From positions 32,001-96,000 of the IMG/VR virus record IMGVR_UViG_3300045988_037736: 64,000 nt of DNA; one strand, given 5' to 3'. Numbering within the stretch: position 1 is the stretch's first letter; each line of letters starts with the position of its first letter. The translations under genes were made by a program, and so were the position numbers. The stretch comes from a virus. The notes under the pieces were generated by a model, which made no database searches, was not told the origin of the DNA, and was given only the letters and a program-made list of their open reading frames with translations. Shown here piece after piece: positions 3,826-29,292 of this stretch.

Positions 3826-6800
3826 TTATAGACAACCAAGCTCTTGTTCCATCTCTTGGTCTTCCATCTGTGACCAAGACACTTCATCTATATGCTTGGC
3901 AGCAAGTCCATCTCTTTGCTCCTGTGTTAGATTATTCCACTGTAGATGGTGTGGAATAGGAGTTAATCTTCCTCCTAAATCCCAACCCATTCCTCCAGTG
4001 AAGTCATCTTCAAATAGACCCTCTCCTATGCTCATATCAACTGCTATTCCTAGAGTAGGGTCAACAGTCATATCAACAGAGTCTGCTACCTGAGCTTCTA
4101 TAGGAGTTACAGGTTCTACAGGAGCCTCTACAACACCAGTTCCTTCATTAAGAGTCTCTTCAATTCCTGAAACCATTGCCTTCTCAGCATCAGTAAGTCT
4201 ATCATAGACTATCCTTAATGGCTTGTAAGGAACTGCAATAGTCTCTTGGAGTACAGGATTTGCCTCTGTATATTCTCTACCATCTATAAGAAGTTGATTA
4301 TCCTTCTCAGGTGATACTGAATAGTCAGCAGTTCCATTTCTCCAACCTGCTGGTGCAGGATAGGAAACTCCAATAGGAATAATGTTGAGAGCCTTCACTT
4401 GTACACCATATTTTCTCTCAAGGAAATCTTTATAAAGAGACAACTGTCTAGCATACTTCTCCCTCTTATGTTGGTCAATCCCACTTCTATTAGTCTTCAT
4501 ATCGAAGATATAGAAGTTTCCCTTTCCATCATAGGCAAGAATGTCAAGTGTTCCTGCTACATTTATAGTATGGACTTTACCATTGCTGTCAGCAACTTCA
4601 ACCTGCCCTGTAACAGTTACATCCCTTGGAACAACTGTCAAACCATTTACCTCAAGGTTATTCTTGAGTACAGTGAGTTGTTCTGCAAACTTCTGTAAAG
4701 CTTCAGGAGTAGCATTAGGATACTTGCTAAAGTCAGTTGCCACACCTGCAAAGAAGTCTCTTACAAACTCATCAATACCAGTACCTATATTAGTAGAGGG
4801 TGTTACCCAAGGACTGTTAGGGTCAAACCTTTCTCCAGCCTCTTCATCAGCAGCTATTATTGAAGTAACTCTAGCATATCTAGTACCTTTACTATCAACA
4901 TAGCCTGAGCCATCATCAGCGAGAGTAATAGATTTAGAGTCATCTACAATCCTATCTACTATCTCCTTTGCTCTTTCAGCAGCAGGGTTAGCAGCAGGAG
5001 CAGACTCTCCCTGTACTACAGTTCCAGTGTCACTGTCTATTACTGTATCACCTCTTACAACCTGACCATTAGGTACTACTACTGGCTCATTAACAGGAGA
5101 TGCAGGTGAGGCATTAGTAGGGTTAGCTACTGTAGTATATACAGGACTTCCATCACTCTTGAAAGGACTCTGTAGTGCTATACCTTGGATGATATAATTG
5201 AATGATACATTAGTAGGACTTACCTCAAGGAAACCATCATCATATATATCTGATAGGTTCTTCTTGGCTGCATTGTCTCCTTCAGCAGCTCTCTCTACAT
5301 CAGAGAATGGAACTTGCCATTTGATAAATGAGTCTCTCTCATTAGCCATTCTAACTTCTCCACTTTCATCAGTAAGAAGATTCTTAAGGAACTCATGCTG
5401 AGCAGCCTTACTTGCCTCTTCTGTCATTCCCTGATATACAGTAGTAAGATGTATAGGGGTAATGGAGCCATCATCATTGACAAGGTCTATACTATATACC
5501 TTCTTACCATCTGCTACCTGGTCTGTAGCAGTGACAGAGTAATGCCATCCAGACTTTGAAGGAACATTCATGTAGTTACTTATTTGATTCTCAATAGTAT
5601 TAGCCATTGAGTTAAGTAACTTTTCAGTATCACCTAAAGGTACTACTTGACCACTAGAATCTCTTGTGAAACTCATCTCCTCATCTGAGAAAGTCTCAAT
5701 GAAGTTAGCTATAGTCTTGGCAGCTCTTCTGGTTCTACTGTTAAAGTTGATAAGTCCATCTACACTGTCTCTTACTTGGGAAACAGTCTGTCCTTCCTTG
5801 TTCTGAGTTCTTTGTACTGGAGCAATAAAGATGTCTATGGGCTGTGTTCCACCATTCAGTTTGTCTTGATGGAATACAATCTTCTTTCTATTGTCTCCCA
5901 CCTTAACTATACCAAGTCTCTTTAAGAAATTCCTCTTGGCTTTTTGATAGCCCATTGGAGTTCCCTTATCCTGTTCACTAAGGTCATTCTGTCCAACATC
6001 AAGTACATTATTATTCTCCTGTCCTCTTCTACTTGAGTCAAAGCTGGTTGCAGCTACAATAGGCTTAAGTAGTTTGGTTACAACAGGAGAACCATCAGTA
6101 TTCTTTACAAGGGATGTGCCAGTATTGCCTACTGCAAGGCTCCTTATAGGAGCCATGTTCTTGCTACCTGGACTATATTCAACTCCTGTAGCAGACATTA
6201 CACTAACTGGTTGGAAGTGCTTATCCTGACCATCAACATTGATAGTTATTGGACCATTAGAAGATTCAACAACTGCAATGATAGGTAGGTCATTTTCAGT
6301 ATATCCAAAGCCCTTAGATTCCATGTTGCTCTTAACCTCATCTGTAAGTGCATCATCTGTAATGAACATCACTTCAGAATCTCTAGTAAGAACTCCATCT
6401 CTTAGGGCATCCTCAATACCATACTTATCATAGTACCTTACTATAGGAGTATCAGGATGAGATTGCCTCAGATAAGCTATATTCATACTGGTAATCATAC
6501 CAGATTCTGGATTACCAACAATGAACTGATAGTTCATCTTCCTTGCTTGAGTTCTGATTGCTCTTCTTCTCTTATCAAAGAATGGAGATACAGGAGCATC
6601 TACCCTAGGAGAAGGAGTATCAATCTTCTTCTCATCTGACTGAGATTTAAGAACCTTAGCTACAACATGTCTTAGAAGGTCAGGTACTTGAGTTTCATTA
6701 GCTTCTGCTCTACCATCCATAGCATTTGCTCTTGCAGTAATAGCATCTGCAAACTCTTGTACAGTGTCAAAGCTATTGGCAGACAGTCCTTCTATAAGAG

Positions 6801-9800
6801 CCTTTACCTGCTCCTTTGCTTCAGCAGTAAATGAAGGTGCATTCTCTGCAACTCTTAAAGCTACTTCAGCGGCTTTACCAACCTCCTCATTGCTATTTTC
6901 AATGAATGTGTCTATAACAGAACTAGGTTGGGTTACTTCAATAGGAGTTTCTACAGGAGTAACAGGAGTTTCAACTTCACCCTGCTCAACCATATCAGAT
7001 ACTGTAGGACTTCCAACTCTTTCACCATCTTCAGTAATATGTCCTGCTTCAGGGGTACTACCTCCAATGTCAAATATAGTTGGACCAGATGGAGTAGGGT
7101 CAGGAATTGCAGCTGGCTCTGAGGCTTCAACAGGAGTTTCAGTTGGAACAACTTCCTCATTATTAAGGTCTCTTTGTTCTCTTTCTGAGTTATACCTGCC
7201 CATTATATCTCTATAGGTTTGAATGGTCTCTTCTATAGAGTTATAGCCTGTAATCTGCCCTTCAATAGGAGCCTTCTCATTTGCTCTTGCAAGATGCTGT
7301 TCAAAGTAAAGATTAACTTCTCCATCCTCAGCAGCATCCCTATCATAGTCAAGTAGCATTTCAGCACCTGCTTCAACATCAGTTACATCAACTCCACTAT
7401 TACTTAGATAGTCAAGAGTAGCTGCAAAAACATCAGCTCTTGGGTCATTCTCTTCAAAGACTCCATTCCTTTCAGCCCAATCATAAATCTCTGACTTTCT
7501 TTCATTCTCTCTAGAGTATCTTTCAAACATATCTCTAGCTTCCTGAGGGAAATCATACCATTTACCCTTGTAAGACTGATTGGTAAGCATATCTTCTACA
7601 GCAGCTATTTCAGCTTCATCCCCTCTATTATAAATATCATCAAGTCTTTCTGAGAATTGCCAATAGTTACCATTAGTTGCTATATCAAGGAGTTCCTCAT
7701 TTTTCTTCTGTAGCATTCTCTGTTGTGCTTGATGTTTAACCTTTGCCACATACCTATTGAGGGCTTTAGGGCTATACATAAGAGCAAACTGAGAGTTCAT
7801 AGCAGCTCTATAGTCTCTTTCAACTCTATTCCTATCTGCAATCTTCTTGGTAAAGTCTTGATGTATAGAAGTACCTACACTATTAACTTTATCAATTTCA
7901 GCTTGCTGTTCCTGACTATATCTATCTCTATGCTTTGGGTCAAGCATAAAGGCTCTATCACTTGCAGACAGAGACATAATCTCAGAAGCAGAAAGAACTG
8001 TAGTATCTACAGGGTCATTATATGTAACACCATCCCTCTCTACTGCCTGATGCTGAGCATTGAAACTGTAGTCTTCCTGAGCAGACTTTATAGACTTGAT
8101 GTTTCTATCAAGTTCTCTAGCATAGCTTTCAGCCATAGCAAGAGTAGCTTGGTCTTCCTGTGAAAGAGAACCTCTCTTCTGCTCTCTCTTCATCTCTCTT
8201 ACAACTTGGTCAAGTTCAGACTTCTGTTCTTCAAGTTTAGAGAGTTCAGTTACAGCATTACTTAGTGAGCCAAACCTTGCTATAAGTCTCCTTCCTTTAT
8301 TATTGAGAGCTGAGCTTGGAGTAGCATCTTCCTGTGAGTTAAGTTCAGTTGTTACCTCAGCTATTTCTTCATCAAGTTGACCTATCCTCTTCTTATAGTC
8401 CTCAATAACTACCTTATTAAATACCATACTTGCCTTAACATCCTGGTCAATATTCTCTCCAAATATCTTCTCAATAGACCTGGTTTCTTTTGAAACCATA
8501 TCCATCATGTCAAGCATTTCATTGGCATTTCTCTGTATAGTCTGAAGGGCTTCCTCTCTACTTATGTTCTGAGTTCTGTTCTGAGCTGATGCCATGAACT
8601 GTTCAACAGCCTTTGATTCCTCTGACTCAGGGTCTTGCAGATTCTGAGCATCAAAGTTTGCCCTTGCCTGTAGGTTAGCCATAACAGCTTCATGATAACC
8701 AGTACCTTCAAGGTCATTAAGAGTTATAATGTTACTAAACATTTGACCAACTCTTGCATCTCTTGCAGCCTTTTCATCATTACTTTCTATAGCCTCTTGA
8801 TATTGAGTAAGCCATTCAGCAGTACCTCCTGCATTAAATAATGCTCTCTGCATACTTTCATCAGAGAAGTAGGTATTAAAGTGTTCAGCCATCTTCTCCC
8901 TCTGCTGATTGACAGCATTGATTTCAGTATTTGAGAATAAAGGAGTAAAGGCACTTCTCCAAGTAATACCCTTTGCAGTCATATTACCATTAGCACCTTG
9001 TTTCATACCAATGTTAGGTCCACCCATTGCAGTGGATAAAGCACCATAGACACCACTCTTTATAGCATCAAAGGATATAGCTGTATTACCTGCTGCTTGT
9101 AGACCTGCTGCAAAGGATTGCCAGAAGTCATTCTGAGCTGCTGTAGCTCCAGGGTTTGCACCATATTTATTGTCAATATACTGTTGCATTTTGTCTTCAG
9201 CATATGCCTGACCAAATGCACTAGATATATCCTGTGTGTACTCTTCAAAGCCTTCACCTAAAGCCTCCTTAAGCCTACCCTTAAAGGCTTGACCCTTAGT
9301 CATCTGTCTTGCTTGAGCTACCCATCTATCTCCCTGTCTTGCTATATTAACTGCATCTCCTACAGAGTTATTTCCTCCTATACCAATCTTCCTAAGAGCA
9401 TTCTGAACTCTTGGAGCTTGCTGACCTGCCTGCCATGTAGCATTGACCATACCATTTATAACAGAGTTAGTCCAAAAGTCATAGTACATAGCTGTGTTGG
9501 CACTTTCCTCGGCAGCTTGTCTATCTGCTGCCATATCAGCAGCATACTTTCCTTCAAACTGTGCTCTAGCTTCAGGGTTGGACTTTAAGTAGTCTGCTTG
9601 TTCCTGAGACATATTATGCTCTCTAGCATAGGCATCAATATCAGCATCTACCTTAGAAGCATATCTATTCTGAATATCTGTTTCAAGACCTTTCAGAGTT
9701 TCCTGTTTGGTCATAGCAGCATTCATGCCACCTTCAACTGTGCCTACTGCACCTGGAACAAGAAGATTTCCTATGTTCCTTGCCTTAGTCACTCCTCTTA

Positions 9801-10998
9801 GGAAGGATACTCCTTTTGCTGAAGCATTAAGAGTCTTTCCTCCCATAGCTACTTTTCCTAGCCAAGCAGCTCCTTTAGTAGCTGCATTAACAGCAGCAGA
9901 GCTACCAAATGAGAGGATAGTAGAGGCAGCAGTAAAACCATACTGACCAAATAACTCAAAGGGTGTATTAGCTGAAAATAAGGAGTTCTGTTGCTCAACA
10001 GTATTAAAGATAGGATTGTCAGATAGTCCAAGACTCTCCAATCTCTCTTGCTCCGATGGTGACCATGAGTTAGTAGTTGCAACCCTGTCACCATATCTAG
10101 TTACAGCATTATCAATTACATTCTCAAGCCATGACTCATCATCTTCAAGACCTATACCTACAGCACCACCTATCATACCAGCAGCTCTGATAATCATACC
10201 AGCAGCACTGTCAATAAACTGAGCACCAGAGTTCCATGTTTTTTCAAGGAATGACTGATTGTTTGCTACTGTATTTTGATAGTAGTTACCAAGAGCCTTA
10301 GCAGCAAACTGACCTCCACCAACTGCTTCATTAGCAAGATAGGAGGCAAGAACCTGCTTTCTCTCCTCTGTAGACATTGATAGCTTATCTGTACCATTAT
10401 ACTCCTTATACATTGGAGAAATTTCTCCTGAGAAAGAATCAAGGTCAGTCAGGTACCTTTCTAGAGTCTCTGAGTCTAGGGCATTAAGCTGGTTATAGTA
10501 GGTATCATATAGTTGGGCAGACTTATTCTCAAGATAGGAAAAAGCCTGCTCCCTCATAGTATCTCCTCCTGTTAACTTAGCATCAATTAGGGCATACTTG
10601 TAATCAGGGTCAAACAGGAACTTCCACACAGAAGTGGAAGATTCCTGTAAATCACTCCTAGCATCAAGGTCAGATGCTAGAGCCTTCTTTGCTACATAGT
10701 CATCTCTCTGTCCTTTCGTAAGAGAGCTTCTGCTGTTGAATATCTGTTGGTCTTCTTCACTGTTACTATTGCCAAATATATCCATGAATACTGTGTTCCT
10801 AAAGTAGTTATCTTTTTGAACATCATCCATTCCTTGAATTTCTCTAGCATACTGCTTCTCCCATTCAGCCCTATCATCTGCACTAAGACCGGTCAGTCCC
10901 GAAAAGTAGGACTGATTATACCTTTGCTGTAGAGTCTGTTGTGACTTCTCTGAAGGAAGAGCAAACATTCCAGTGGGACCACCCGCTAATATAGGCAT
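3826..10998 (-). CDS. giant 2390-aa multidomain virion/ejected-type protein. Gly/Ala-rich N-terminal part, Pro/Thr/Val-rich linkers, C-terminal RecB-family PD-(D/E)xK-like motif set (D..FDMK..QLSLY).
   Basis: Single 7.2-kb ORF, TAA stop, no in-frame TAG. Motifs LDILAYDG / IFDMK / QLSLY lie near the C-terminus (nt ~4440-4560). Confidence 0.75.
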   Translation of the reverse strand: MPILAGGPTGMFALPSEKSQQTLQQRYNQSYFSGLTGLSADDRAEWEKQYAREIQGMDDVQKDNYFRNTVFMDIFGNSNSEEDQQIFNSRSSLTKGQRDDYVAKKALASDLDARSDLQESSTSVWKFLFDPDYKYALIDAKLTGGDTMREQAFSYLENKSAQLYDTYYNQLNALDSETLERYLTDLDSFSGEISPMYKEYNGTDKLSMSTEERKQVLASYLANEAVGGGQFAAKALGNYYQNTVANNQSFLEKTWNSGAQFIDSAAGMIIRAAGMIGGAVGIGLEDDESWLENVIDNAVTRYGDRVATTNSWSPSEQERLESLGLSDNPIFNTVEQQNSLFSANTPFELFGQYGFTAASTILSFGSSAAVNAATKGAAWLGKVAMGGKTLNASAKGVSFLRGVTKARNIGNLLVPGAVGTVEGGMNAAMTKQETLKGLETDIQNRYASKVDADIDAYAREHNMSQEQADYLKSNPEARAQFEGKYAADMAADRQAAEESANTAMYYDFWTNSVINGMVNATWQAGQQAPRVQNALRKIGIGGNNSVGDAVNIARQGDRWVAQARQMTKGQAFKGRLKEALGEGFEEYTQDISSAFGQAYAEDKMQQYIDNKYGANPGATAAQNDFWQSFAAGLQAAGNTAISFDAIKSGVYGALSTAMGGPNIGMKQGANGNMTAKGITWRSAFTPLFSNTEINAVNQQREKMAEHFNTYFSDESMQRALFNAGGTAEWLTQYQEAIESNDEKAARDARVGQMFSNIITLNDLEGTGYHEAVMANLQARANFDAQNLQDPESEESKAVEQFMASAQNRTQNISREEALQTIQRNANEMLDMMDMVSKETRSIEKIFGENIDQDVKASMVFNKVVIEDYKKRIGQLDEEIAEVTTELNSQEDATPSSALNNKGRRLIARFGSLSNAVTELSKLEEQKSELDQVVREMKREQKRGSLSQEDQATLAMAESYARELDRNIKSIKSAQEDYSFNAQHQAVERDGVTYNDPVDTTVLSASEIMSLSASDRAFMLDPKHRDRYSQEQQAEIDKVNSVGTSIHQDFTKKIADRNRVERDYRAAMNSQFALMYSPKALNRYVAKVKHQAQQRMLQKKNEELLDIATNGNYWQFSERLDDIYNRGDEAEIAAVEDMLTNQSYKGKWYDFPQEARDMFERYSRENERKSEIYDWAERNGVFEENDPRADVFAATLDYLSNSGVDVTDVEAGAEMLLDYDRDAAEDGEVNLYFEQHLARANEKAPIEGQITGYNSIEETIQTYRDIMGRYNSEREQRDLNNEEVVPTETPVEASEPAAIPDPTPSGPTIFDIGGSTPEAGHITEDGERVGSPTVSDMVEQGEVETPVTPVETPIEVTQPSSVIDTFIENSNEEVGKAAEVALRVAENAPSFTAEAKEQVKALIEGLSANSFDTVQEFADAITARANAMDGRAEANETQVPDLLRHVVAKVLKSQSDEKKIDTPSPRVDAPVSPFFDKRRRAIRTQARKMNYQFIVGNPESGMITSMNIAYLRQSHPDTPIVRYYDKYGIEDALRDGVLTRDSEVMFITDDALTDEVKSNMESKGFGYTENDLPIIAVVESSNGPITINVDGQDKHFQPVSVMSATGVEYSPGSKNMAPIRSLAVGNTGTSLVKNTDGSPVVTKLLKPIVAATSFDSSRRGQENNNVLDVGQNDLSEQDKGTPMGYQKAKRNFLKRLGIVKVGDNRKKIVFHQDKLNGGTQPIDIFIAPVQRTQNKEGQTVSQVRDSVDGLINFNSRTRRAAKTIANFIETFSDEEMSFTRDSSGQVVPLGDTEKLLNSMANTIENQISNYMNVPSKSGWHYSVTATDQVADGKKVYSIDLVNDDGSITPIHLTTVYQGMTEEASKAAQHEFLKNLLTDESGEVRMANERDSFIKWQVPFSDVERAAEGDNAAKKNLSDIYDDGFLEVSPTNVSFNYIIQGIALQSPFKSDGSPVYTTVANPTNASPASPVNEPVVVPNGQVVRGDTVIDSDTGTVVQGESAPAANPAAERAKEIVDRIVDDSKSITLADDGSGYVDSKGTRYARVTSIIAADEEAGERFDPNSPWVTPSTNIGTGIDEFVRDFFAGVATDFSKYPNATPEALQKFAEQLTVLKNNLEVNGLTVVPRDVTVTGQVEVADSNGKVHTINVAGTLDILAYDGKGNFYIFDMKTNRSGIDQHKREKYARQLSLYKDFLERKYGVQVKALNIIPIGVSYPAPAGWRNGTADYSVSPEKDNQLLIDGREYTEANPVLQETIAVPYKPLRIVYDRLTDAEKAMVSGIEETLNEGTGVVEAPVEPVTPIEAQVADSVDMTVDPTLGIAVDMSIGEGLFEDDFTGGMGWDLGGRLTPIPHHLQWNNLTQEQRDGLAAKHIDEVSWSQMEDQEMEQELGCL

Positions 10999-15104: not shown

Positions 15105-15170
15105 CTAAATGAATTTTGTATGCAAATGTAGCAAAAATATCCCACTAATACAATAGTATAATACAATTAA

Positions 15171-15204: not shown

Positions 15205-15206
15205 AA

Positions 15207-19955: not shown

Positions 19956-19965
19956 GTTAATATAA

Positions 19966-20664
19966 TTAATGAAGTTTGATATACTCCTTAGAACCAAGAG
20001 TTTTAAACCCTTTGCTATGCTCATTAGTCCTGGAGATTAAAGTATTCCAAGAATTAGTGAAAGATTGGAGTTGGTCAATAGAGGGCCTAACAAGGTCAGA
20101 CTGAGCTTGACCCACTGCCCAAGCATATTGTTGTTCTGCGTGTTGCAGAACCTGTTGAGTTATCCTACCAAGCTCAAACTGAACTGTAAAATGTTTTACC
20201 TTTATAAATAGCTCAAGTGCTTCCTCAAAAGAACCATTCTCTGGTATGAGAGGGAATCCTTCTTCATCTGTCGAGAAAGCTCTATAAGCTACTTCTATAG
20301 TTCCTTCCTTCATAGAAGTAAAAATACAACTTCCCTGTAGTTTATAGGTAAGGTCATTATCTCTTGTCTTATCAGGACTCATATGAAATGAATCAGTAGA
20401 GTATCTGAATACTTCATGAAGTACTCCATTACAGTTATGACCAACTGCTCTTACCTGTATCATTTCATAGAAGTCACAAGGTAGCTTACCTCTATAATTC
20501 TCTATCTCAACCTTCTCTGTTTTCTCAAGGAATATTGAGGGCATACCTACCTTCTGTATGAACCTGACAGCATAATTGACTGCCCTTTCTAAAGATAAAT
20601 CTTGTAGCAAGGGATTATCCATCAGGTTATCAAGAACTTGTCTTATGCTTATATATTTTGTCAT
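19966..20664 (-). CDS. hypothetical protein 232 aa
   Basis: Clean ORF, TAA stop 10 nt upstream of the next gene's start. Confidence 0.65.
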   Translation of the reverse strand: MTKYISIRQVLDNLMDNPLLQDLSLERAVNYAVRFIQKVGMPSIFLEKTEKVEIENYRGKLPCDFYEMIQVRAVGHNCNGVLHEVFRYSTDSFHMSPDKTRDNDLTYKLQGSCIFTSMKEGTIEVAYRAFSTDEEGFPLIPENGSFEEALELFIKVKHFTVQFELGRITQQVLQHAEQQYAWAVGQAQSDLVRPSIDQLQSFTNSWNTLISRTNEHSKGFKTLGSKEYIKLH

Positions 20665-21185
20665 ATCTTAAAAGCATCAAAGTTACCACTTTTAATTCTT
20701 TGCTTCAATCTCCTTTTAAGGTCTCTGTTCACTACAAATTCATAGAGGGATTTATTGTTGTAGTCTGCATCAATCCTGTTATAGTAGACCTTGAAGATTT
20801 CTTTTTCCTCCATTTTAATGAGTGTTCTTTCCTTATAGGCTTCCTCATCTTCTGACCATAGTTTAAGTGTTCTATCCCAGTCAATAGGAAGATTAGTCTT
20901 TACCTTTCCCTTCTCAACTGAGATTCTTACATCATACTTCCTTATCTCTATAGTACCCATTCCACATGGTAACTTTATATCATGGCCATGTATAAGTGAC
21001 TCGGCAAGAAGATTATTTATCCTTCTTATAATAGAGTAGAACTGATGTTCTGTAATAGGCTGTCCTATATCAAACCATTTGTTCTTTCTGATATACTTGT
21101 AGGCATCATATACTCCATATGAGTTATTCACTCTATAGACTCTTGACTCACTTACTTTAAGTACCTTCTTTCTGAACTCCTCCAT
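20661..21185 (-). CDS. hypothetical protein 174 aa
   Basis: Clean ORF, TGA stop. Confidence 0.6.
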   Translation of the reverse strand: MEEFRKKVLKVSESRVYRVNNSYGVYDAYKYIRKNKWFDIGQPITEHQFYSIIRRINNLLAESLIHGHDIKLPCGMGTIEIRKYDVRISVEKGKVKTNLPIDWDRTLKLWSEDEEAYKERTLIKMEEKEIFKVYYNRIDADYNNKSLYEFVVNRDLKRRLKQRIKSGNFDAFKI

Positions 21186-21864
21186 ATTTGAACTTGTATC
21201 CTCTGCAAAGCTTACCAGTCCTGCAACACTTACTTAACCATGATTTATCTACTCCTAGAGCTAAGGCTGCTTCTGTAGCTGATTTGTACACAGCTAGTAC
21301 TTCTCCCTCCCTATCAAGCATTTGTACAATCTTAGACATTGGTGAGTTCTCAGATATTTTCAACCTTTCACACATAGGTCTTTTCCTACCAAGATTTACT
21401 TGTCTAAGACATTCCTTTTGTTTCTCACTCATTTTCCATCCAGAACCTCTAGATGATTTTCCTCTATGGGCTATACTCAACTTCTTCTTATGAGATTCTG
21501 TAAGAGTACATCCCCTTCTCTTATTGGATTTTTCATAAGGAATCTTAATTCCTTTATTCCATGGGACATTCCCTGTGCATCCCTCCCCTCCATCTGTAAT
21601 ATTGAGACTAATCCCTAAATTCTTGTAATAGGCTATATATTGTTTCTCTCTATTTATAGCGTCTTGTTCTGTCATTCCAGTATAAAGTATTTCATGAGTT
21701 ATATTGTCCCATCCATACTTTATTATACTATTCTTAAATGGAGAGTTCTTACAATTAAAATACCCTTTACCATTATTCCATCTATGAAGAGGATTTTGGC
21801 TAGTTATGCCTATATATACTTTGCCAGATGGAGTAGTATGTTTATACAAACAATATTCTTTCAT
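21157..21864 (-). CDS. GIY-YIG homing endonuclease
   Basis: N-terminal YxxxxPSGKVYIGIT...R...H motif with a basic C-terminal DNA-binding region. Confidence 0.75.
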   Translation of the reverse strand: MKEYCLYKHTTPSGKVYIGITSQNPLHRWNNGKGYFNCKNSPFKNSIIKYGWDNITHEILYTGMTEQDAINREKQYIAYYKNLGISLNITDGGEGCTGNVPWNKGIKIPYEKSNKRRGCTLTESHKKKLSIAHRGKSSRGSGWKMSEKQKECLRQVNLGRKRPMCERLKISENSPMSKIVQMLDREGEVLAVYKSATEAALALGVDKSWLSKCCRTGKLCRGYKFKYGGVQKEGT

Positions 21865-22592
21865 CAGTCCTCTAGCTGTTTTTGGAAATTACCCTTCATA
21901 TTTCTTTTAATAAAGGTTGCTATATCAGATAAATCATCTGACGCATTGTTGTCAGTGTCCTTTCCCCTATAGACTGCACCAGAGAGATACTTGACTACAA
22001 GTTCAATCAGTGTAGATGCAAGTCCTTCTTCAAGAGGGAACTCCCTGTCTAGTACATCACATTTCTTATCACCTGAGTCACACTCAAGTTCTGCTGCTTT
22101 GTCAGGGTCTTCAAAGATGCCTGTCATTCTTACCTTTTCAAGGTATAGGAACTGGGGGTTACTTGACTTGAAATATAGGTAATCATCTGGGCCTTTCGAT
22201 ACATAGATAATATTCTTAAGCCATTTATTTTCACCCACATATCTCATTCTTTCCCTACTTACATAAGTAATATGGGTACCTTGATAGAAGTCTACAGGAT
22301 ACACTGTGTTTGTACCTATAGACATAGTTGAAGGCACTTTCTTCTCACTCCTAAGATATGTACCACCCTCACAAGGTTCTCCTGCAATAGCAGGTACTTG
22401 TATAAGGTCTAAACAGATAGTTTGGTAGTTACTTTGGGGTATCTCTTTCTTTATATCAGAATATCTTTGCTTCAGTATTAAAGCTCTTAACTTTGATACA
22501 AGAAATAGGACATGCTCCAATGTTATGTATGAGTCATCAGATACTGCTTTCAAAGAATCTAGACACATATAACACACTTCTCTATACGTCAT
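21864..22592 (-). CDS. hypothetical protein 242 aa
   Basis: Clean ORF, TGA stop. Confidence 0.6.
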   Translation of the reverse strand: MTYREVCYMCLDSLKAVSDDSYITLEHVLFLVSKLRALILKQRYSDIKKEIPQSNYQTICLDLIQVPAIAGEPCEGGTYLRSEKKVPSTMSIGTNTVYPVDFYQGTHITYVSRERMRYVGENKWLKNIIYVSKGPDDYLYFKSSNPQFLYLEKVRMTGIFEDPDKAAELECDSGDKKCDVLDREFPLEEGLASTLIELVVKYLSGAVYRGKDTDNNASDDLSDIATFIKRNMKGNFQKQLED

Positions 22593-22617
22593 ATATTTAT
22601 GATATTTATAAGTTTAT

Positions 22618-23286
22618 TTAACTACTATATTTCCATATAAACCCGCCAGAGGTTTTGTGCTCCCCATTTAGGCATTTATACAAGGAAGCTTCAGCTATAC
22701 CAGTACATAAACTAGCTTCCTTAACTGAAGGAAAGGACTGTATCAACTCTTCTTCTAAAGAAAACTGTAGTACGCCCTTTATGGTTTTAGCCTTTATTAT
22801 CTTATCAGACCAAGTACAGGGTCTTCCTTTCAGAGACTTACTGATATTATTTCTCCATTCTTCTGTAAGCTTTACTCCCCTACGAACTAATGATAGCTTC
22901 TTTTTAACCTCATCAGTTCTCTTCTTTCCTCTGTTAGCTATAGAAATTCTATTTTTGGACTCTGTAGAAAATTTGTAGCCAACGGTGGAGTCCCCTCCTA
23001 TTGTGCAATTATATCCATGCACATAAGAGTTATATAGTCCTATGTAATATACTTCCAGCTTGTCAAGTTCTTCTTTAGCCTGCTTTTTAGAACTAAATAT
23101 TCTCTTTTCTAAAACTTCATATTTGAAGGACTCCAAACCATATTTAATTCTAGCCCTATTTATTTTAATTCCAGCATATGGCCCGACAGTGTTCCAATGC
23201 TCCCTTCGTATTTTCTCGTTAGTAGTCTGACCTATGTAAGATTTTCCACTTGGAGAAACATATCTATATATAACACCTTCAACCAT
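22618..23286 (-). CDS. GIY-YIG homing endonuclease (paralog)
   Basis: GVIYRYVSPSGKSYIGQT motif. Confidence 0.75.
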   Translation of the reverse strand: MVEGVIYRYVSPSGKSYIGQTTNEKIRREHWNTVGPYAGIKINRARIKYGLESFKYEVLEKRIFSSKKQAKEELDKLEVYYIGLYNSYVHGYNCTIGGDSTVGYKFSTESKNRISIANRGKKRTDEVKKKLSLVRRGVKLTEEWRNNISKSLKGRPCTWSDKIIKAKTIKGVLQFSLEEELIQSFPSVKEASLCTGIAEASLYKCLNGEHKTSGGFIWKYSS

Positions 23287-23363
23287 ATTCTGTATAATTA
23301 AAATGCTCCTGCAAAGGTAAGCATTTTTTACTTATCCTGCAAGAGCATAATAATTTTTATTTT

Positions 23364-23609
23364 TTACTGTATACAAGTTCCTTTACATGAATCATAAGGA
23401 ATGAGGCAGCTTCCTTGTAGGCAAGAAAGTGCTCTCTCTATAATATACTTCTGTTCAGAAGTTAAAGAGGTCTCCTTACTCAGCTCTGTAATATAAGTCA
23501 GTACTAGAACAGAGAATGTGTCACTATCAGGAATATAACCTACTTGAGACAATCTCTTAAAGTACCTGTTGAGAGTGTCATATAGTTTATTATCTTCCAT
23601 TGCATCCAC
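23364..23609 (-). CDS. hypothetical protein 81 aa
   Basis: ORF; overlaps the next gene's start. Confidence 0.45.
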   Translation of the reverse strand: MDAMEDNKLYDTLNRYFKRLSQVGYIPDSDTFSVLVLTYITELSKETSLTSEQKYIIERALSCLQGSCLIPYDSCKGTCIQ

Positions 23610-24105
23610 ATCCTTTTAGAGTTGTTCCTTTTACCATTGTGAGCATCTTCCAGTACTTAATAGCAGTACTATAGTTGCAAGTAGCTATAGCCATATCAAG
23701 AGCATATCTGTTAAGTATGAAATCAACAAAGCCCCTTGATATTTCACAGGTATCCCCAAGCTCTTTAAGGTATCCAAGCCCCTTATCTATCAAGATATTT
23801 CTATCATAAATAGCTGCCATATCAATGACATCAGCTCCACAAGGAGTATCAGGAGGAAGAGATATGTGGACTATAGGAGTGATGATAAGAAGTTCTTTCT
23901 TGGCATCTGGGATAAAGATTTCTGTCGTATACTGAGTTACATCGTCTCCATCACAGAGATGATATGGAGTATCAGTTCCATAGGTGAGAGGAGTGTCAAC
24001 CCTGACACCTTTTATACTTAGATTGCTATAGTAAGGCTTATCTTCTATCTCAAAGTCTATTATGAGCTTGTTACCATCTATCTGTAGCTTATTATACTTT
24101 ATCAT
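23590..24105 (-). CDS. hypothetical protein 171 aa
   Basis: ORF, TAA stop. Confidence 0.55.
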   Translation of the reverse strand: MIKYNKLQIDGNKLIIDFEIEDKPYYSNLSIKGVRVDTPLTYGTDTPYHLCDGDDVTQYTTEIFIPDAKKELLIITPIVHISLPPDTPCGADVIDMAAIYDRNILIDKGLGYLKELGDTCEISRGFVDFILNRYALDMAIATCNYSTAIKYWKMLTMVKGTTLKGCGCNGR

Positions 24106-24116
24106 AGTGTATAAAA

Positions 24117-24145
24117 TAAAAAAGGGAGGCTTTTGACCTCCCTTA
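24117..24145 (-). terminator. strong rho-independent terminator (GGGAGG-tcaaaag-CCTCCC + T7) after the 346-aa gene
   Basis: Read on the minus strand the hairpin is followed by TTTTTTTATTTT. This implies a highly expressed upstream gene. Confidence 0.6.
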
Positions 24146-24148
24146 TGA

Positions 24149-25189
24149 TTAGGCTAGTTCTGCAACCTGTACCTTAGAGGCTTCAGCAAACTGACCAATG
24201 AGCTTGTTTAGCTGTGCCTTGTCAGCACATACAATAGTGATGTCCTTCTCTGACCTTTGTGGTCCTTCATTGGGACCTACATAAGCATAGTGGATTTCAA
24301 GAACATTGTATGCAGTGTCAGGGTCAACAAGATACTTGGTTGGAATACTGTTAGGCCATCCAATATTTCTGTATTGGTCACCTCTTTCACCCATGCAGAA
24401 GTACTCAAGGTCTGCAATTATTCTACCATTGTTTCTTACAGTAGTGGAGTCACTTACTGTTACTGCACCCCACTTAACTTCTTCACCATCAAAGGTTACT
24501 GTAGTAGGAGTAACTGTGAAGTTAACTTTAGTCTGTTCCTTGATACCAAGAGTCCAGTCCTGCTCTACTTCTGTGATAGTAACACCATCAGCATAATCTT
24601 CAGCTACTGTGATAGCTGCACCAGTAGTGTCAATAAGAGTTTCCTCACCATTAACATCTGTCTTTACTCTACCTACAACCTTTCCAGCTATAGTGAACTC
24701 AAGCATCTTGCCAAGTTCTCTGCTGAAATTCTTGTAGAGAGAAGCTGCAAGCTTAGTATAGAACTGGGCAGGAGTCATAGTTCTTGTAGCATGAACAGCA
24801 CCATACTTGAAGTAGGGTTCCCCATCTGACATTCCTACATAAGGATTGATACAGATTCTAAGGATATAGTCCTGACCTCCAATAGGATTGCCTTCATTGA
24901 CACTAGCATCAAGCTTAACTACAGCCTGCTTAAGTGCATACTTCTGAGTAGCAGCCTCTGCACTTACAGCTTTGGCATAGAGAATATTGTCTATGTTGAT
25001 GAGGTCACTCCTCATAAGGTTATCAGCCCCCTTATACTGGAAGTATAAGTTCTTACCTTCAGCATCAGCCTTGAGAGCAATGGTACCAGCAGCATCTGAC
25101 TCACTCACCTTACCATCTGTCTTCTTTGCAGTACCTTGAACTGCTGTGACTACATAAAGTTGTCTTACTTGGTTAGTTGAAAATACCAT
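24149..25189 (-). CDS. 346-aa virion structural protein candidate (tail tube/sheath or capsid-associated)
   Basis: Clean ORF followed by a strong terminator. Beta-rich composition. No TAG. Confidence 0.5.
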   Translation of the reverse strand: MVFSTNQVRQLYVVTAVQGTAKKTDGKVSESDAAGTIALKADAEGKNLYFQYKGADNLMRSDLINIDNILYAKAVSAEAATQKYALKQAVVKLDASVNEGNPIGGQDYILRICINPYVGMSDGEPYFKYGAVHATRTMTPAQFYTKLAASLYKNFSRELGKMLEFTIAGKVVGRVKTDVNGEETLIDTTGAAITVAEDYADGVTITEVEQDWTLGIKEQTKVNFTVTPTTVTFDGEEVKWGAVTVSDSTTVRNNGRIIADLEYFCMGERGDQYRNIGWPNSIPTKYLVDPDTAYNVLEIHYAYVGPNEGPQRSEKDITIVCADKAQLNKLIGQFAEASKVQVAELA

Positions 25190-25208
25190 AATTTATTTTA
25201 TTAAGTTT

Positions 25209-25904
25209 TTACTTACCTGCACTGGCTCTACTCTTCAAGGCAAGGCTAACTGCCATTTCTAGTATCACTCTATGTATTGCAGGGTTTAATTTACATTCAG
25301 TTGCTTTTGTTAATCCATTGATAGAAAGACCTTCAGGTAAATCAATAAGGATGATAGGTTCTGGCTTTGACAGGTATCTAATCTGGTACTCATCTATGTT
25401 GAATGCTGAGATAAGTTCAACTGTATATCCTTCAATATCAAGCCTTAATACTCTCCTCTTGTTGGGCATTCTGAATGGATTCCTTTTGGTTTTATAGAGT
25501 TCATCTTGAGTGACAGGAACTACTTCCATTATAGAACCTTTAGCACAACCTAACTTAACATCTTGAGATGTTACAGCCTCATAGGTTATAAACCAGGTAT
25601 CTTCAGGAATATTGAAGAAGTATGAGTCTCTTGTAAGACCTTCCCCTTCCACCTTGTCAGTGGTGGAGTAGGTCTTTACAAGACTGCTCAAATATCTTCT
25701 GAGTTCCTCTGTCTTCTCGAATGAATCTCCTGTAAGGTTTCCATTGTAGAGTGATATGACTATACTCTCTTGTGCCTTTGTAAGGAACATTGACTTTTCA
25801 TATTCATCAAACTCCAATGGCATAGAGTCTACACCAAATGGCTTGATGATGGAGTTGCTGTTGACTAGATTGTCAAATTCATTTGAGAACTCTTCGTTTG
25901 TCAT
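25209..25904 (-). CDS. hypothetical protein 231 aa
   Basis: ORF, TAA stop. Confidence 0.6.
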   Translation of the reverse strand: MTNEEFSNEFDNLVNSNSIIKPFGVDSMPLEFDEYEKSMFLTKAQESIVISLYNGNLTGDSFEKTEELRRYLSSLVKTYSTTDKVEGEGLTRDSYFFNIPEDTWFITYEAVTSQDVKLGCAKGSIMEVVPVTQDELYKTKRNPFRMPNKRRVLRLDIEGYTVELISAFNIDEYQIRYLSKPEPIILIDLPEGLSINGLTKATECKLNPAIHRVILEMAVSLALKSRASAGK

Positions 25905-25906
25905 AA

Positions 25907-26700
25907 TTATCTACTTTGAGTTACAATACCCATATTAGTCTGTGATGTCTGACCAAGAGCAACCTGTGAAGTAAGGTCTCCAATATAAGCAGCCTTAGCT
26001 AGCTCACAAGCTCTTTGAATAATCTCTGGAAATAGTATTGGGTCAAGCTCACAACATTCCTCACTACTCTCACCTCCTATAGTAAGACCGTCAAATGTAC
26101 TTAGTCTAATAGCTTTAGGACGTCTAACAAATCTATAGGTATAACTAATTAAGGAATCCTAATATCCTAAAATTAATTCAACTTTCTTTCTATTACTGTC
26201 AGAAATAAGCAATCTCCAAGCTTGGTTTTTTAGAGGATATTTGTAAGGTTTGCTAGTGAGTCTATTATACTCCAAGTAACTAATAGGGATAACAGTTAAT
26301 CCAGTTTCGTTATTACCTCTCTAAACTGTAACATACTCGTTGATAAACATGAATATATCATCTTGAAGGATGATACTTTTACTGCTTTTTCTATTGTCAA
26401 AGTGTGCATCTAAAAAAGAGTCTGCATCTGCTATTGTACGGTCTCTCATGAGCATAGAGAAATCAATCTACCTTATCTCACTTCCGTCAAAACCTTCTTG
26501 AGACTTATTAGTTTTTGGACTAAAATAAGCTTTTACTACTTCATCTTGAGCCTTAGTTAGAAATACAGACTTCTCATATTCATCCAAACCAGGAGCCTGA
26601 TTACTTGTAATGCTGTTGTAAATTATATCAAACTCATTACTAAATTCCTAATTTCTTATTCTTCTTTCTTCCGCAGTCATAAGGTTTTCAATTTGCGACA
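25907..26700 (-). CDS. hypothetical protein ~263 aa encoded with 4 in-frame TAG codons
   Basis: No tracked ORF here. Manual translation from the ATG at 26700 (MSQIENLMTAEERRIRN...) runs cleanly to the TAA at 25907 if TAG is read as sense. Confidence 0.5.
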
Positions 26701-26719
26701 TGTAACTTAAAGATTAAAG

Positions 26720-27715
26720 TTACTGCCTTAACTTAGCCTCAAGAGAAAATTTAATTTCTTGATGCTTGGGATTATTAAGATACTTGGCTGCTATGTTGAG
26801 TGTAGGTTCTTCATTAGCTTCACATAATGGGGCATTATCACTCCTTAGATATAGATAATTTCCTCTATTAGAGATAAGACCTGCTTCAATAGCTTTCCTA
26901 ATAAGGACTTTGGTAGGAAGCATTGGGTCTGTAATAGCTCTAAGGAAGATTTTACTATCTGCTTGGATAAGGTCATTAGCCTTGGTCTGTAAGAACTCAA
27001 GCTTAGATGTAGAAGCAAGGGGTCTACCATCAATAGTTTCAATGATGACTCTCAGTGTATCTGCATCTTCCTCTATCTTACCAAACTCCTTATAGCACTT
27101 CATTGTAGTACTCATGTTAACCTTAGCATTCTTAGTTTCATCACCTTCAGAAATGATTACAAACTGATAGCTTGCCTTGGGAGCATCCTATAGTGCCTCA
27201 AGTGAGGGAGCAATATAGTTCTTATTAGCTAGAAGAATCTTATATCTGATATAATCTTCTGGGTCTGCCAGATTAAAATAATTATCTTGCTTGGTAAGTC
27301 TTACCCTTGAGATACCCTTATCATTTGTGTCATCCCAGAAGTTATCTGTTTTTCTATAGATAGATAGAGCATTTACCTCAAGTCTCATGATATGTTCAAG
27401 GAAAGCCTTTTCATCATCTGTCAGTACATTCACGTACATACCTGAGCTTAACCTAGGTACTGTAAATGTCTTGGTAGCATTCTCGGCCATACCTCCATAG
27501 AGTATATGTTTGGGATTAGTAATCATACCACCAAGCTTGGGTATATGTCTCACAATGATTCTTTCATTTCTTAAGCAGTTTATTAGCTGCTTTGGTGCTC
27601 TTCTTGCGGGCTGTTCCTCAACTATAGGAACAACTTTTGGCACCTCTTGTAGAGGCAACTCATCAGATAGGTCAATCTGAGCTACATCTATTTCTTCCAT
27701 ATTTTTCTTTGCCAT
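26720..27715 (-). CDS. hypothetical protein ~331 aa (ORFs 27188-27715 + 26720-27115 joined through one TAG)
   Basis: Same frame. ORF 27188-27715 ends in TAG (CTA at 27188-27190). The 72-nt linker contains no TAA/TGA. Confidence 0.55.
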
Positions 27716-27740
27716 ATCTTCTCCTTATGAAGTTAAAGAA

Positions 27741-27770
27741 AGGGGAAGAGAGAATTGCTCTCTCCCCCTT
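27741..27770 (-). terminator. hairpin (GGGGGAGAGAG/CTCTCTTCCCC) just after the capsid-like gene
   Basis: Inverted repeat directly downstream of the TAA at 27778. Confidence 0.4.
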
Positions 27771-27777
27771 ATTTTGT

Positions 27778-29292
27778 TTAGCCCTGTAGTATAGCAGGGA
27801 TAAGTGACATTGTTCTAGTTGGGTCAAGAACACAAATACCAAGAGTAGCCATCCTATGGAAGGTAGCTGAATCTTCATCATATGACATGAATTGATTACC
27901 AAGCTGACCTGTGAAAGGATTTCTCAATCCCCATTGATAACCTCTGAACTCCTCTTGTCCCTTAATCTTACACTTGAAGATATTGGGCTGGTCCATAGTA
28001 CCAATGTACATGATGTCATACCTGTAAGAGAAGGCAGGTCCACCATCAGGGTGTTGTACCTTGTTTCTTATTGGGTCATCATAGTATGGGTCAACATCAA
28101 GCTTCACTCTTACACCATTAGGTGCCCTGTACTCTACAAACTGGAAGCCAGCTGCAAGAGCATTAGTATGAAGATTGCTTTGTGTCTTCTCAACAACATT
28201 CAGAGCATCACCATTAAGTGTGAACTGAGTCCATCCACTTACAGTCTGAAGTACAGCCTTATGGAATTGTATAGCACCTCTTTCACCTGTCTTAATGACG
28301 AAGTACCTATCACCAAAGTCAAGCTTGGATGCAGACAGTTCATATAGGGCATCTTCAAGAAGTTTCAGGCTGAACTTGTTGTAGTACTGAGTATTAGCTA
28401 CCTCCATCTGTTCAAACAGACCAGCACCCATCTTAATAACTTCACCTGACTTACCAAAGTTCAGATACTCTCCATTGTTGTTTCTGTTGCTTCTACCAAA
28501 GGCAAGAATGTTATTCTTGTATTCAGAGAATGTCTGTTCAACTTCCCAGTCAACATAGTGCATCCACATGTTAACTACAGACTTAGTGTAACCTGTAGGA
28601 GTTTCCTTTGTTACAGGAATACCACATGCAAGTTTCTTGTTGAGCATATTGCCAGGCACCTTATGTTGGATTCTGATGGTAGACCATTCATTTCTCATAG
28701 ATACAGGAGAAGTGAATCTAACATCACCAACTTTCCTTGAAAGTGCTCTTTCTACAGGAGCATATTCATAGCTGAATCTTTCTCCTGGAAGGAGTCTTTC
28801 AGCAGGAATACCTTGGGTAATACCACCCATTAGCTCTACCTTGTAAACTGCATTAGTACCTTCCATTCTCGGATTACCAAGAATCCTCATGGGATATACT
28901 TCATTCAGATTACCTACAATTACTTCACCATCAGCAAACCAGTCCTCAGGGAAGACAAGCTCAAACACAGCTGTACCAACACCTACATTGGCAGTAGTTG
29001 CTGCGGTTACTACATTGCCATTCTCATCTCTTGCCTCAAGCAGAGGAATATTCCTTCTGGTAGAGCCAATTACATCCCAGTAATATTCTGAGTCATCTTC
29101 AAACTCTTTTGTAGGGAACTGGCTTAGGAAGGTATCAAGAGTCTTACCTCTGTACCAAGCTAATAGCTGTACCATTAGGTTAGTTGCCTTCTGTGGAGCA
29201 AGCTGGAAGATTTGACCAAGGTGGTTGTCCTTTGTCAGACCTTTCCAGTGAGAAAAGCCAATCATTTGGAACTTATTCAGTTTTCCAGCCAT
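27778..29292 (-). CDS. major capsid protein candidate (504 aa, HK97-fold-like by size and position)
   Basis: Follows the acidic scaffold-like gene and is followed by a terminator. No TAG. The assignment is positional and compositional inference. Confidence 0.5.
   Translation of the reverse strand: MAGKLNKFQMIGFSHWKGLTKDNHLGQIFQLAPQKATNLMVQLLAWYRGKTLDTFLSQFPTKEFEDDSEYYWDVIGSTRRNIPLLEARDENGNVVTAATTANVGVGTAVFELVFPEDWFADGEVIVGNLNEVYPMRILGNPRMEGTNAVYKVELMGGITQGIPAERLLPGERFSYEYAPVERALSRKVGDVRFTSPVSMRNEWSTIRIQHKVPGNMLNKKLACGIPVTKETPTGYTKSVVNMWMHYVDWEVEQTFSEYKNNILAFGRSNRNNNGEYLNFGKSGEVIKMGAGLFEQMEVANTQYYNKFSLKLLEDALYELSASKLDFGDRYFVIKTGERGAIQFHKAVLQTVSGWTQFTLNGDALNVVEKTQSNLHTNALAAGFQFVEYRAPNGVRVKLDVDPYYDDPIRNKVQHPDGGPAFSYRYDIMYIGTMDQPNIFKCKIKGQEEFRGYQWGLRNPFTGQLGNQFMSYDEDSATFHRMATLGICVLDPTRTMSLIPAILQG

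Follow-up and report, generated by a model that had tools for sequence, protein, structure and literature searches.

The window analysed here, the whole of a 64,000-nucleotide stretch of virus DNA (positions 32,001 to 96,000 of IMG/VR record IMGVR_UViG_3300045988_037736), belongs to a crAss001-like phage of the Steigviridae/Asinivirinae type, in which the codon TAG stands for glutamine (Gln) and is used at very different densities from one gene to another. Its virion gene set places the phage in the Crassvirales: window proteins match the Pfam families Crass_capsid (E = 2.5e-220), crAss_AuxCP, CrAss_Ring_1, CrAss_Ring_2, CrAss_Ring_3_4 (twice), the tail hub families crAss_THA and crAss_THB, crAss_CARG1 and crAss_CARGO2, and the families crAss_MUZ and crAss_MUZ_C were matched by P0001, a database protein 99% identical to the muzzle of the window. 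The proteins of crAss001 are collinear on the window (blastp against its open reading frames, ORFs) in the order gp49, gp47 to gp31, portal, terminase large subunit and gp16 to gp10, followed by the tRNA array. Both the convergent junction of gp47 with gp49 and the tRNA array upstream of the late genes are as in crAss001, to which the gene models were anchored by homology and synteny. The major capsid gene is 76-78% identical in nucleotides (nt) to those of crAss001-like Bacteroides phages, and its product is 79% identical in amino acids (aa) to crAss001 gp32. The best named relatives in the databases are crAss001 and IAS virus, and no relative above 80% nt identity was found in INPHARED. We take the group of these two phages to be the “beta” group, where recoding is common according to Yutin et al. 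(2021, PMC7886860).

The genes and features on which the analysis turns are the following, each gene with its TAG fraction, that is, TAG/(CAA+CAG+TAG):

1-3768, plus strand: gp49-like gene for a cargo protein associated with the virion RNA polymerase, TAG 0/51, at least 1255 aa, its 5′ end cut by the window
3775-3802: bidirectional terminator-like hairpin with an 11-bp stem and a T run on either strand, separating the convergent gp49-like and gp47-like genes
3826-10998, minus strand: gp47-like gene, TAG 0/133 (54 CAA, 79 CAG), 2390 aa
11022-12410, minus strand: gp46-like gene for cargo protein 2, TAG 0/33
12414-15104, minus strand: gp45-like gene for cargo protein 1, TAG 6/32
13734-14275, minus strand: recombination junction zone in the gp45-like gene, coinciding with the portal-binding CARG1 domain
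15168-15209, minus strand: hairpin with an 18-bp AT-rich stem, straddling the muzzle stop codon in the 102-nt gap before the gp45-like gene
15207-19955, minus strand: gp44-like muzzle gene, TAG 40/62 (64.5%), 1582 codons
19966-20664, minus strand: gp43-like tail ring 1 gene, TAG 0/15, Pfam CrAss_Ring_1
25907-26701, minus strand: gp34-like ring R4/R5 gene, TAG 4/15, Pfam CrAss_Ring_3_4
27188-27190, minus strand: the TAG codon of the gp33-like gene, TAG 1/11
27778-29292, minus strand: major capsid protein gene, TAG 0/23, Pfam Crass_capsid
gp31-like gene, minus strand: TAG 1/11
35358-36410, minus strand: tail-fibre-region gene 1, TAG 7/21
36413-37516, minus strand: tail-fibre-region gene 2, TAG 11/19
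37524-38318, minus strand: tail-fibre-region gene 3, TAG 4/7
38315-39274, minus strand: tail-fibre-region gene 4, TAG 3/12
39274-41673, minus strand: portal gene, TAG 2/50
41774-46165, minus strand: terminase large subunit gene with two inteins, TAG 3/35
50323-50395, minus strand: suppressor tRNA with anticodon CUA, Gln-like, called by ARAGORN as tRNA(cta)

TAG is a sense codon for Gln in this phage (code 15). If TAG is read through, the share covered by ORFs of at least 150 codons goes from 60.6% up to 80.2%, and reading through TGA or TAA gains much less; all gene models end in TAA or TGA, and TAG terminates none in the window. The muzzle region runs for 1609 codons free of TAA and TGA and its homology to crAss001 gp44, as to 11 further muzzle proteins, extends over the full length. 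When 12 muzzle sequences are aligned, Gln makes up 30.6% of the homologue residues at the 40 TAG columns, against a background of 3.4% and against 33% at CAA/CAG columns, and four of the TAGs fall in columns of invariant Gln. Decoding of TAG as Gln has been seen by metaproteomics in other crAss-like phages (PMC9523058).

Over the whole set of 41 genes, 87 of 696 Gln codons are TAG (12.5%), and a uniform fraction is rejected (chi2 = 284, 40 degrees of freedom, P = 1e-38); under a uniform 12.5%, counts of 0/133 and of at least 40/62 have probabilities of 2e-8 and 1e-21. Among the genes with at least ten Gln codons, the fraction lies between 0 and 0.09 in 12 and between 0.19 and 0.65 in six, a strongly two-sided distribution. 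The mosaic that the original prediction had described, with the gp47-like, gp49-like and capsid genes without TAG and a muzzle gene saturated with it, is thus real according to per-gene counts and dispersion. Its premise that such bimodality is not expected from neutral drift under one code is correct, and the per-gene ratios that it called for gave no unimodal distribution. Some particulars have to be amended. The 2390-aa gene does lack TAG, but it has 133 Gln codons instead of about 150. The TAG-rich gene is not immediately adjacent to it, since the TAG-free gp46-like gene and the gp45-like gene, with six TAGs, stand between them, and the longest TAG-free run of the 1582-codon gene reaches 205 codons, beyond the limit of about 150 given for it.

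Homologues in related phages, a comparison also proposed at the outset, explain most of the pattern. They are of three kinds: a near-twin, a set of TAG-free relatives and a set of recoded ones. The near-twin, IMG/VR contig ..._064014, is 95-98% identical in nt to window positions 13734-29955 and onward to at least 51.5 kb, and shares the 40 muzzle TAGs and the suppressor tRNA; below position 13734, inside gp45, it diverges abruptly, and its gp46 and gp47 are only about 28-30% identical in aa to those of the window. The next closest genomes are contigs ..._031323, ..._025205, ..._042591 and ..._049815. Their aa identities to the window are 98-99% for the capsid protein, 95-97% for the portal, 92-94% for gp33 and 89-92% for gp43, whereas they fall to 38-39% for the muzzle, 57-67% for gp34 and 52-69% for gp45. 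In these four phages, in-frame TAG is absent from every gene examined, TAG read-through brings no gain, and the 19-22 tRNAs of each include no suppressor. Along the roughly 52 kb that the comparison with relatives reaches, nt identity to the TAG-free phages describes a backbone of 80-91%, broken by segments that do not align:

14.0-20.0 kb: the N-terminal third of gp45 and the muzzle gene
21-22 and 22.5-23.5 kb: two homing-endonuclease genes
26.0-26.5 kb: part of gp34 (26001-26500)
31.5-39.5 kb: small genes and the tail-fibre genes
43-44 and 44.5-45.5 kb: the two terminase inteins
47-47.5 kb: a third homing endonuclease
50-51 kb: the suppressor tRNA segment

Where the window is at least 75% identical to TAG-free relatives, 11 of 472 Gln codons are TAG (2.3%); elsewhere the count is 76 of 224 (34%; Fisher P = 2e-30). 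The sharp and reproducible changes of nearest relative along the window, with incongruent identities, point to a mosaic genome. We therefore favour, as the probable explanation of the TAG patchwork, that layers of different ancestry left by recombination set its density, and that two selective filters act on top of them.

Three such layers may be proposed. The first, an old recoded layer, would comprise the muzzle gene gp44, the N-terminal third of gp45, part of gp34, the fibre genes and one terminase intein, with 25-65% TAG; since this level is known only from phages that have long used code 15, these modules were presumably brought in by recombination from a lineage of that sort. The second, the backbone, would include the capsid, scaffold, portal and terminase genes, rings R1-R3, the tail hubs and the small upstream genes, with about 2-3% TAG. 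The third would be the cargo layer (the C-terminal two thirds of gp45, gp46 and gp47), which shares 87% identity with one of the TAG-free relatives and has no relation in nt to the corresponding module of the twin; its zero TAG most likely comes from short residence in a recoded genome. Synonymous codon usage, Gln excluded, differs among the three layers (GC content at third codon positions of 0.256, 0.350 and 0.277).

The contrasts between the muzzle and its adjacent ring-1 protein, and between gp34 and the neighbouring gp33, are sharp-edged, which argues for module replacement and not for divergence in place. Upstream, the muzzle module ends at about 19960, between the muzzle gene and the backbone gp43-like gene. 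The nearest muzzle alleles outside the twin lineage are 50-53% identical by BLASTP (53-56% by global alignment for two of them, L242 and L243) and belong to phages recoded throughout their late genes. No closer muzzle donor was found in IMG/VR with either the single protein or a 12-sequence profile, the JGI metagenomes gave no confirmed match, and a set of 5.8 billion proteins returned only the twin lineage (99%) and the recoded phages at 50-53%. The tail-fibre-region genes (35358-39274, minus strand) occupy the place of crAss001 gp21-gp26; they do not align with the TAG-free relatives, are 96% identical in nt to the twin, and received no family assignment. TAG sites shared between the muzzle and its recoded homologues are at chance level (for example, 10 of 27 conserved-Gln columns against about 10 expected), and so are silent on the common descent of individual TAGs. 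The acquisition of TAG-rich modules from a fully recoded donor, one of the two explanations first offered, is thus well supported by their failure to align with TAG-free relatives and by the recoded state of the nearest muzzle homologues; that it was recent, and in which direction it went, is deduced in the absence of a close donor.

The most precise of these boundaries lies inside a gene. All six TAGs of the gp45-like gene fall in its first 316 codons (codons 149-315), and no TAG occurs in its C-terminal two thirds. The N-terminal third (about 14160-15104) matches the twin at 98% nt identity and cannot be aligned to the TAG-free relatives, whereas the C-terminal part is 87% identical to the TAG-free L004 and diverged from the twin. 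Identity to the twin (98%) ends at 13734, and the L004-type identity (87%) fades at about 14.0-14.5 kb, around the crAss_CARG1 domain (aa 323-452, window 13749-14138). The TAG boundary inside gp45 is a recombination junction, and its position in the CARG1 domain explains why TAG stops abruptly in mid-gene and leaves the next 9.5 kb without it. The crAss001 virion has the N-terminal part of gp45 in its tail barrel and at the muzzle; the portal is bound, inside the capsid, by residues 425-552 of this protein, and it is in the capsid that gp46 and gp47 are stored (PMC10172136). By these locations, the crossover would part a tail-resident piece, inherited with the muzzle, from a capsid-resident piece inherited with the other cargo proteins. 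The muzzle itself is an essential part of the virion and gp34 is the ring that docks it; the TAG-bearing tail parts of the window, namely the muzzle, ring R5 and the gp45 N-terminus in barrel and muzzle, are in contact in the crAss001 virion (PMC10172136), which suggests that they may have been moved or retained as a co-adapted unit.

The capsid-resident cargo genes have a history of their own. The gp46-like protein (Pfam crAss_CARGO2, E = 2.6e-69) is 84% identical in aa to that of L004, and the gp47-like gene is 87% identical, in both aa and nt, to the TAG-free L004 and L007, with only 28% aa identity to gp47 of the twin. Taken together, the C-terminal part of gp45, gp46, gp47 and gp49 are 87% identical in nt (84-94% in aa) to the TAG-free contig ..._031323, and the cargo module of the twin is related to another TAG-free contig, ..._042591 (72-83% nt). 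In four mature recoded relatives, gp47 carries 27/131 (L179), 26/128 (L227), 26/100 (L242) and 33/117 (L243) TAG; the mean fractions are 31% for gp46 and 22% for gp45, and gp45 to gp47 range from 20 to 36%. In the twin, gp47 has 4/108. The probability of 0/133 in gp47 is 3e-16 at the mature rate of 23.5% and 0.007 at the rate of the twin. As its homologues carry 20-28% TAG, the TAG-free state of gp47 in the window reflects ancestry and not necessity. This protein also shows a predicted PD-(D/E)XK nuclease-like domain at aa 2097-2213 (Pfam PDDEXK_1, E = 2e-5; PHROG 298, exonuclease), the sole part of it alignable to crAss001 gp47.

Seven unambiguous TAGs are found in the backbone, with gp31 and orf30611 included: at 14157 (gp45), 27188-27190 (gp33), 29567, 30935, 39304-39306 and 39571-39573 (both in the portal gene) and 42404-42406 (in conserved sequence of the terminase). 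Each is CAG in the TAG-free relatives, with CAA in some of them at one portal site, and the TAG of gp31 is CAA in the twin. The backbone TAGs fit recent C-to-T changes. At sites that are CAG in all three TAG-free relatives, the window keeps CAG in 52 cases and has CAA in 18 and TAG in two; either the lineage has tolerated TAG for no more than part of the time of its divergence, or mild selection acts against TAG. With two changes from CAG to TAG against 18 from CAG to CAA, a gene with 65% TAG cannot arise in place over the same time. The terminase gene also holds two in-frame inteins, at about 44567-45586 (first, about 340 codons, with LAGLIDADG_3 and Hom_end domains) and about 42995-44065 (second, 357 codons, with Intein_splicing and LAGLIDADG_3 domains), both with His-Asn as their last residues and Cys or Thr next in the sequence. 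The TAG-free relatives have neither intein; the twin lacks the first or has a different one, and two in-frame TAGs lie in the second.

The suppressor tRNA is one of 23 tRNAs found in the window by ARAGORN, 21 of them on the late strand, and its 5′ half is identical to that of the window's own tRNA-Gln(UUG) at 22 of 26 positions. It sits in an AT-rich segment of about 0.9 kb (49990-50889) between tRNA-Thr and tRNA-Leu, upstream of the late genes and on the same strand; in crAss001 these two tRNAs are 5 nt apart. The segment also contains a 108-codon ORF (50463-50789, GC 27%, two TAGs), and it has a match almost only in the twin, with a weak and partial one in a single TAG-free relative. The exact pattern of the anticodon arm matched only the twin in IMG/VR, and the pattern with a free anticodon had no match in 185,579 genomes. 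Another recoded relative, L081, has a suppressor tRNA unrelated in sequence at almost the same place of the array, so that this place may be a hot spot where suppressors were gained independently. None of the late-gene orthologues of the TAG-free relatives terminates in TAG, so that an incoming suppressor would do little harm.

The first selective filter is expression timing, which we take to be that of crAss001, where gp49 and gp50 are middle genes, and gp47 and the capsid gene are late (PMC8375218). The hairpin at 3775-3802 marks the boundary between strand and time blocks. Mature recoded relatives have 0/93 TAG in gp49 and 1/114 in gp50, against about 21% in gp47 across the terminator (P = 1.5e-18); the lack of TAG in gp49 and gp50 is the timing partition already known, and relatives that were recoded independently share it. 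The gp49-like protein of the window is 25% identical in aa to crAss001 gp49 over 1123 aa and 94% identical to that of the TAG-free L004; within the window the non-late strand is TAG-free where it is seen, that is, in this gene (0/51).

That selection of this kind alone, by keeping every early-translated gene free of TAG, produced the whole patchwork is nevertheless improbable. A rule at the level of blocks has indeed been documented in crAss-like and other phages (PMC7886860; 10.1101/2021.08.26.457843; 10.1101/2022.06.29.495998), the suppressor tRNA lies at the 5′ end of the late strand, and timing does hold for the gp49-like gene. However, gp47 and the capsid gene are late genes, and the late block of the window as a whole is not recoded, as about 9.5 kb of cargo genes and most head genes are TAG-free. 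The genes from gp47-like to gp43-like are packed head-to-tail on one strand, and the hairpin at 15168-15209, after the muzzle gene, is the sole terminator-like signal among them. One TAG switch falls inside gp45 at 13.7-14.3 kb, at a recombination junction and not at the edge of a transcription unit, whereas the strands switch at 3.8 kb, about 10 kb away. The TAG-free state tracks 80-91% identity to standard-code relatives, and for gp47 the explanation is already contradicted by the TAG content of its homologues in mature relatives and in the twin. Partitioning by expression time, as first suggested, is therefore retained for the gp49-like gene and given up for the gp47-like and capsid genes. 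A scan for sigma-70-type promoters gave no signal, with 58 sites against 61.8 ± 8.2 expected; such a scan does not cover the promoters of Bacteroidota. The hairpin after the muzzle could act as an attenuator or a processing site between the imported muzzle and the cargo genes.

The second filter concerns the capsid. Pooled over six recoded relatives, TAG amounts to 3/119 in the capsid gene (2.5%), 3/61 in the auxiliary capsid gene and 6/66 in gp33, against 142/293 in the muzzle gene. As the capsid gene is late, timing cannot explain its poverty in TAG, which presumably results from the cost of imperfect suppression, in competition with release factor 1, in the most translated genes. Mature recoded relatives show a graded, gene-specific spectrum of TAG fractions from 0 to about 0.9 and not two classes; the near-bimodality of the window arises because a barely recoded backbone is mixed with fully recoded imports. 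In one of the recoded relatives (L243, Logan SRR17244096_355), the major capsid gene is split at 1246-3594 by an ORF for an HNH/NUMOD4 endonuclease, which looks like an intron or a free-standing insertion.

Selection for a translational brake, of the kind proposed for lysis and tail genes, that after the gain of the suppressor rapidly drove CAG and CAA to TAG in the muzzle, ring and fibre genes, without any import, has about as little chance of being the explanation as timing alone. The muzzle is the richest large gene in all six recoded relatives (39-65%), its 65% TAG in the window exceeds the roughly 40% that we estimate for simple AT-biased drift, and Borges et al. found that a few families in code-15 crAss-like phages, a tail gene included, prefer TAG over CAA and CAG (10.1101/2021.08.26.457843). 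But enrichment in TAG cannot yield proteins of 38-67% aa identity with sharp edges beside flanking genes of 89-99%, the backbone has gained only those two CAG-to-TAG changes over the same divergence, and the lysis genes on which the brake model insists are TAG-free here (0/9 Gln codons in the amidase gene at 51079-51678 and 0/4 in the holin-like gene at 34319-34678). The muzzle also varies among the TAG-free relatives: its alleles in loci L004, L009, L011 and L012 have CAA:CAG ratios of 19:31 in one and of 39-40:9-11 in the others, which suggests frequent muzzle exchange in the clade, independent of recoding.

It is very unlikely that the mosaic is an artefact of assembly, a chimeric contig of recoded and co-occurring standard-code strains joined at conserved sequence. 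Relatives of both kinds do share IMG/VR dataset 3300045988, and the cargo junction lies in a conserved domain. Yet the exact gp46-like protein, with the same neighbours (the TAG-broken muzzle, CARG1, CARGO2, the 2390-aa gene and the convergent gene), is found on eight Logan contigs of 50-200 kb, of which the ERR636403 contig is 99.995% identical to window positions 1021-22410 (21.4 kb). The mosaic of backbone and modules is repeated in the independently assembled twin, and an identity of about 80% across the junction zone is too low for graph collapse. Least tenable of all, to the point of having almost no chance, is the reading of TAG as a true terminator, in which case the TAG-saturated gene would be a pseudogene in decay or a series of small genes: the 15.2-20.0 kb region does split into short ORFs under the standard code, but against this stand the long reading frame and full-length homology of the muzzle with TAG aligned to Gln, the suppressor tRNA, the essential role of the muzzle (PMC10172136) and the TAG-to-Gln decoding shown in crAss-like phages (PMC9523058).

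Several observations weigh against layered recombinant ancestry as the explanation. No donor with a close muzzle, gp34 or fibre module was found in IMG/VR, the JGI metagenomes or the set of 5.8 billion proteins, so that import is deduced from incongruent identity together with TAG density, and the direction and date of the exchanges are inferred likewise; the reverse could also have happened, with a recoded ancestor overwritten stepwise by pieces of standard-code backbone. The backbone is 9-20% diverged in nt from the TAG-free relatives, which makes “recent” a relative term. With 0/186 TAG, the cargo layer is poorer than the remaining backbone (7/235), but the difference has only modest significance (P = 0.02). 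Differences in codon usage between layers are confounded with expression level; TAG-rich genes have lower overall GC, which a first look at the single genes traced to the first two codon positions and hence to amino-acid composition. An unalignable gene, orf32239-33138 (minus strand, 299 aa, PHROG 16490), has 0/32 TAG, so a recoded source is not the origin of all non-backbone DNA, and the three homing-endonuclease genes are also unalignable and TAG-free. Finally, the expression-cost account of the TAG-poor capsid is our own inference only.

If recombination did set the layers, a broader mechanism may be considered, which we hold tentatively and at somewhat less than even chances: the suppressor tRNA would be an adapter for one-way gene flow between code domains, and recoding would spread largely by recombination of co-adapted, interacting modules and not by codon drift. 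A standard-code crassvirus that carries tRNA-Sup(CUA) could capture host-interaction assemblies from code-15 phages, in this case the muzzle, its docking ring, the tail-resident end of cargo protein 1 and the fibres, while the reverse transfer into phages without a suppressor would be lethal. Were this so, the TAG density of each gene would be a clock of the time that its module has spent under code 15.

Other features of the window may be recorded. The three homing-endonuclease genes (21157-21864, 22618-23286 and 47051-47716, minus strand) are of the GIY-YIG type (PHROG 314) and stand free among structural genes; the product of the second is 38% identical in aa to that of the twin. The endolysin gene at 51079-51678 (minus strand), of the amidase type (PHROG 822, E = 4e-62), lies inside the tRNA array, far from the holin-like gene, and no spanin gene was identified among the genes of the window. 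Downstream of the array, the ORFs 54609-55643 and 55775-56347 (minus strand, 344 and 190 codons) require TAG read-through (five TAGs and one) and had no Pfam or PHROG match. Near 59 kb the sign of the GC skew switches, the plus strand bears two tRNA-Arg genes (61270-61344 and 61607-61680), and above 60 kb the coding strand is ambiguous, with ORFs overlapping on both strands, those on the minus strand requiring TAG read-through.

As to what these results mean, nothing known about how code 15 works is changed by them. Partial recoding is currently read as regulatory, with late or lysis genes held until the suppressor is present, and as gradual; in the window, the footprint of recombination can explain a large part of it. 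Hence a per-gene TAG bias is no evidence of regulation unless ancestry has been checked, and TAG density offers a cheap marker of imported modules. Callers of genetic codes that work in blocks, as well as gene finders, will mis-segment genomes of this kind.

Among known systems, the window is a code-15 crassvirus, a system of a known kind, caught as a recombinant. It is established that recoding can be confined to late genes, that codes can switch between phylogenetically close phages and that suppressors can emerge before recoding (PMC7886860; 10.1101/2021.08.26.457843; 10.1101/2022.06.29.495998). As in the code-15 crAss-like phages with recoding of the late strand (Ivanova 2014; PMC7886860; 10.1101/2021.08.26.457843; Mgcod, 10.1101/2022.06.29.495998), TAG in the window aligns to Gln and never serves as a stop, gp49 is TAG-free, and a suppressor tRNA(CUA) is found at the 5′ end of the late strand. 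In those systems the partition follows blocks of strand and time, whereas here the late block is itself split into multi-kb pieces that track ancestry, with one boundary inside a gene. Borges et al. (10.1101/2021.08.26.457843) found lysis genes preferentially recoded, in contrast with the TAG-free lysis genes of the window. Closest in situation is OFRY01000050, of the beta group (Yutin et al., PMC7886860), which also has standard-code closest relatives, a gained suppressor and sparse TAGs in conserved genes, the terminase included; the window may belong to its lineage. That case was described as gradual accumulation in situ, whereas 76 of the 87 TAGs of the window lie in segments unalignable to its closest relatives. 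The pair of Agate phages with more than 90% average nucleotide identity and different codes (Borges et al.) likewise shows recoded and standard-code phages very close to each other; it involves TGA read as Trp and was interpreted as rapid accumulation in situ, in contrast to TAG read as Gln and recombination here, and recombination is not discussed in that work (10.1101/2021.08.26.457843).

With crAss001 (PMC10172136, PMC8375218) the window shares gene-for-gene synteny from gp49 to gp11 and the crassvirus Pfam families, but crAss001 uses the standard code and has no suppressor, and the window has another muzzle allele (31-43% aa identity), other fibres, two terminase inteins and other homing endonucleases.

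In the modular theory of phage evolution, tailed phages exchange tail-tip and host-range modules. The window resembles this in the replacement of the distal tail and fibres, in the sharp edges at conserved sequence and in the crossover at the level of domains inside a gene. It departs from ordinary modularity in that the modules differ in genetic code from their recipient, so that the exchange is viable only with a suppressor tRNA and TAG density marks the import. The papers cited here give no account of a genome in which most recoded codons can lie in modules that came in by recombination, with a boundary between codes inside a gene.

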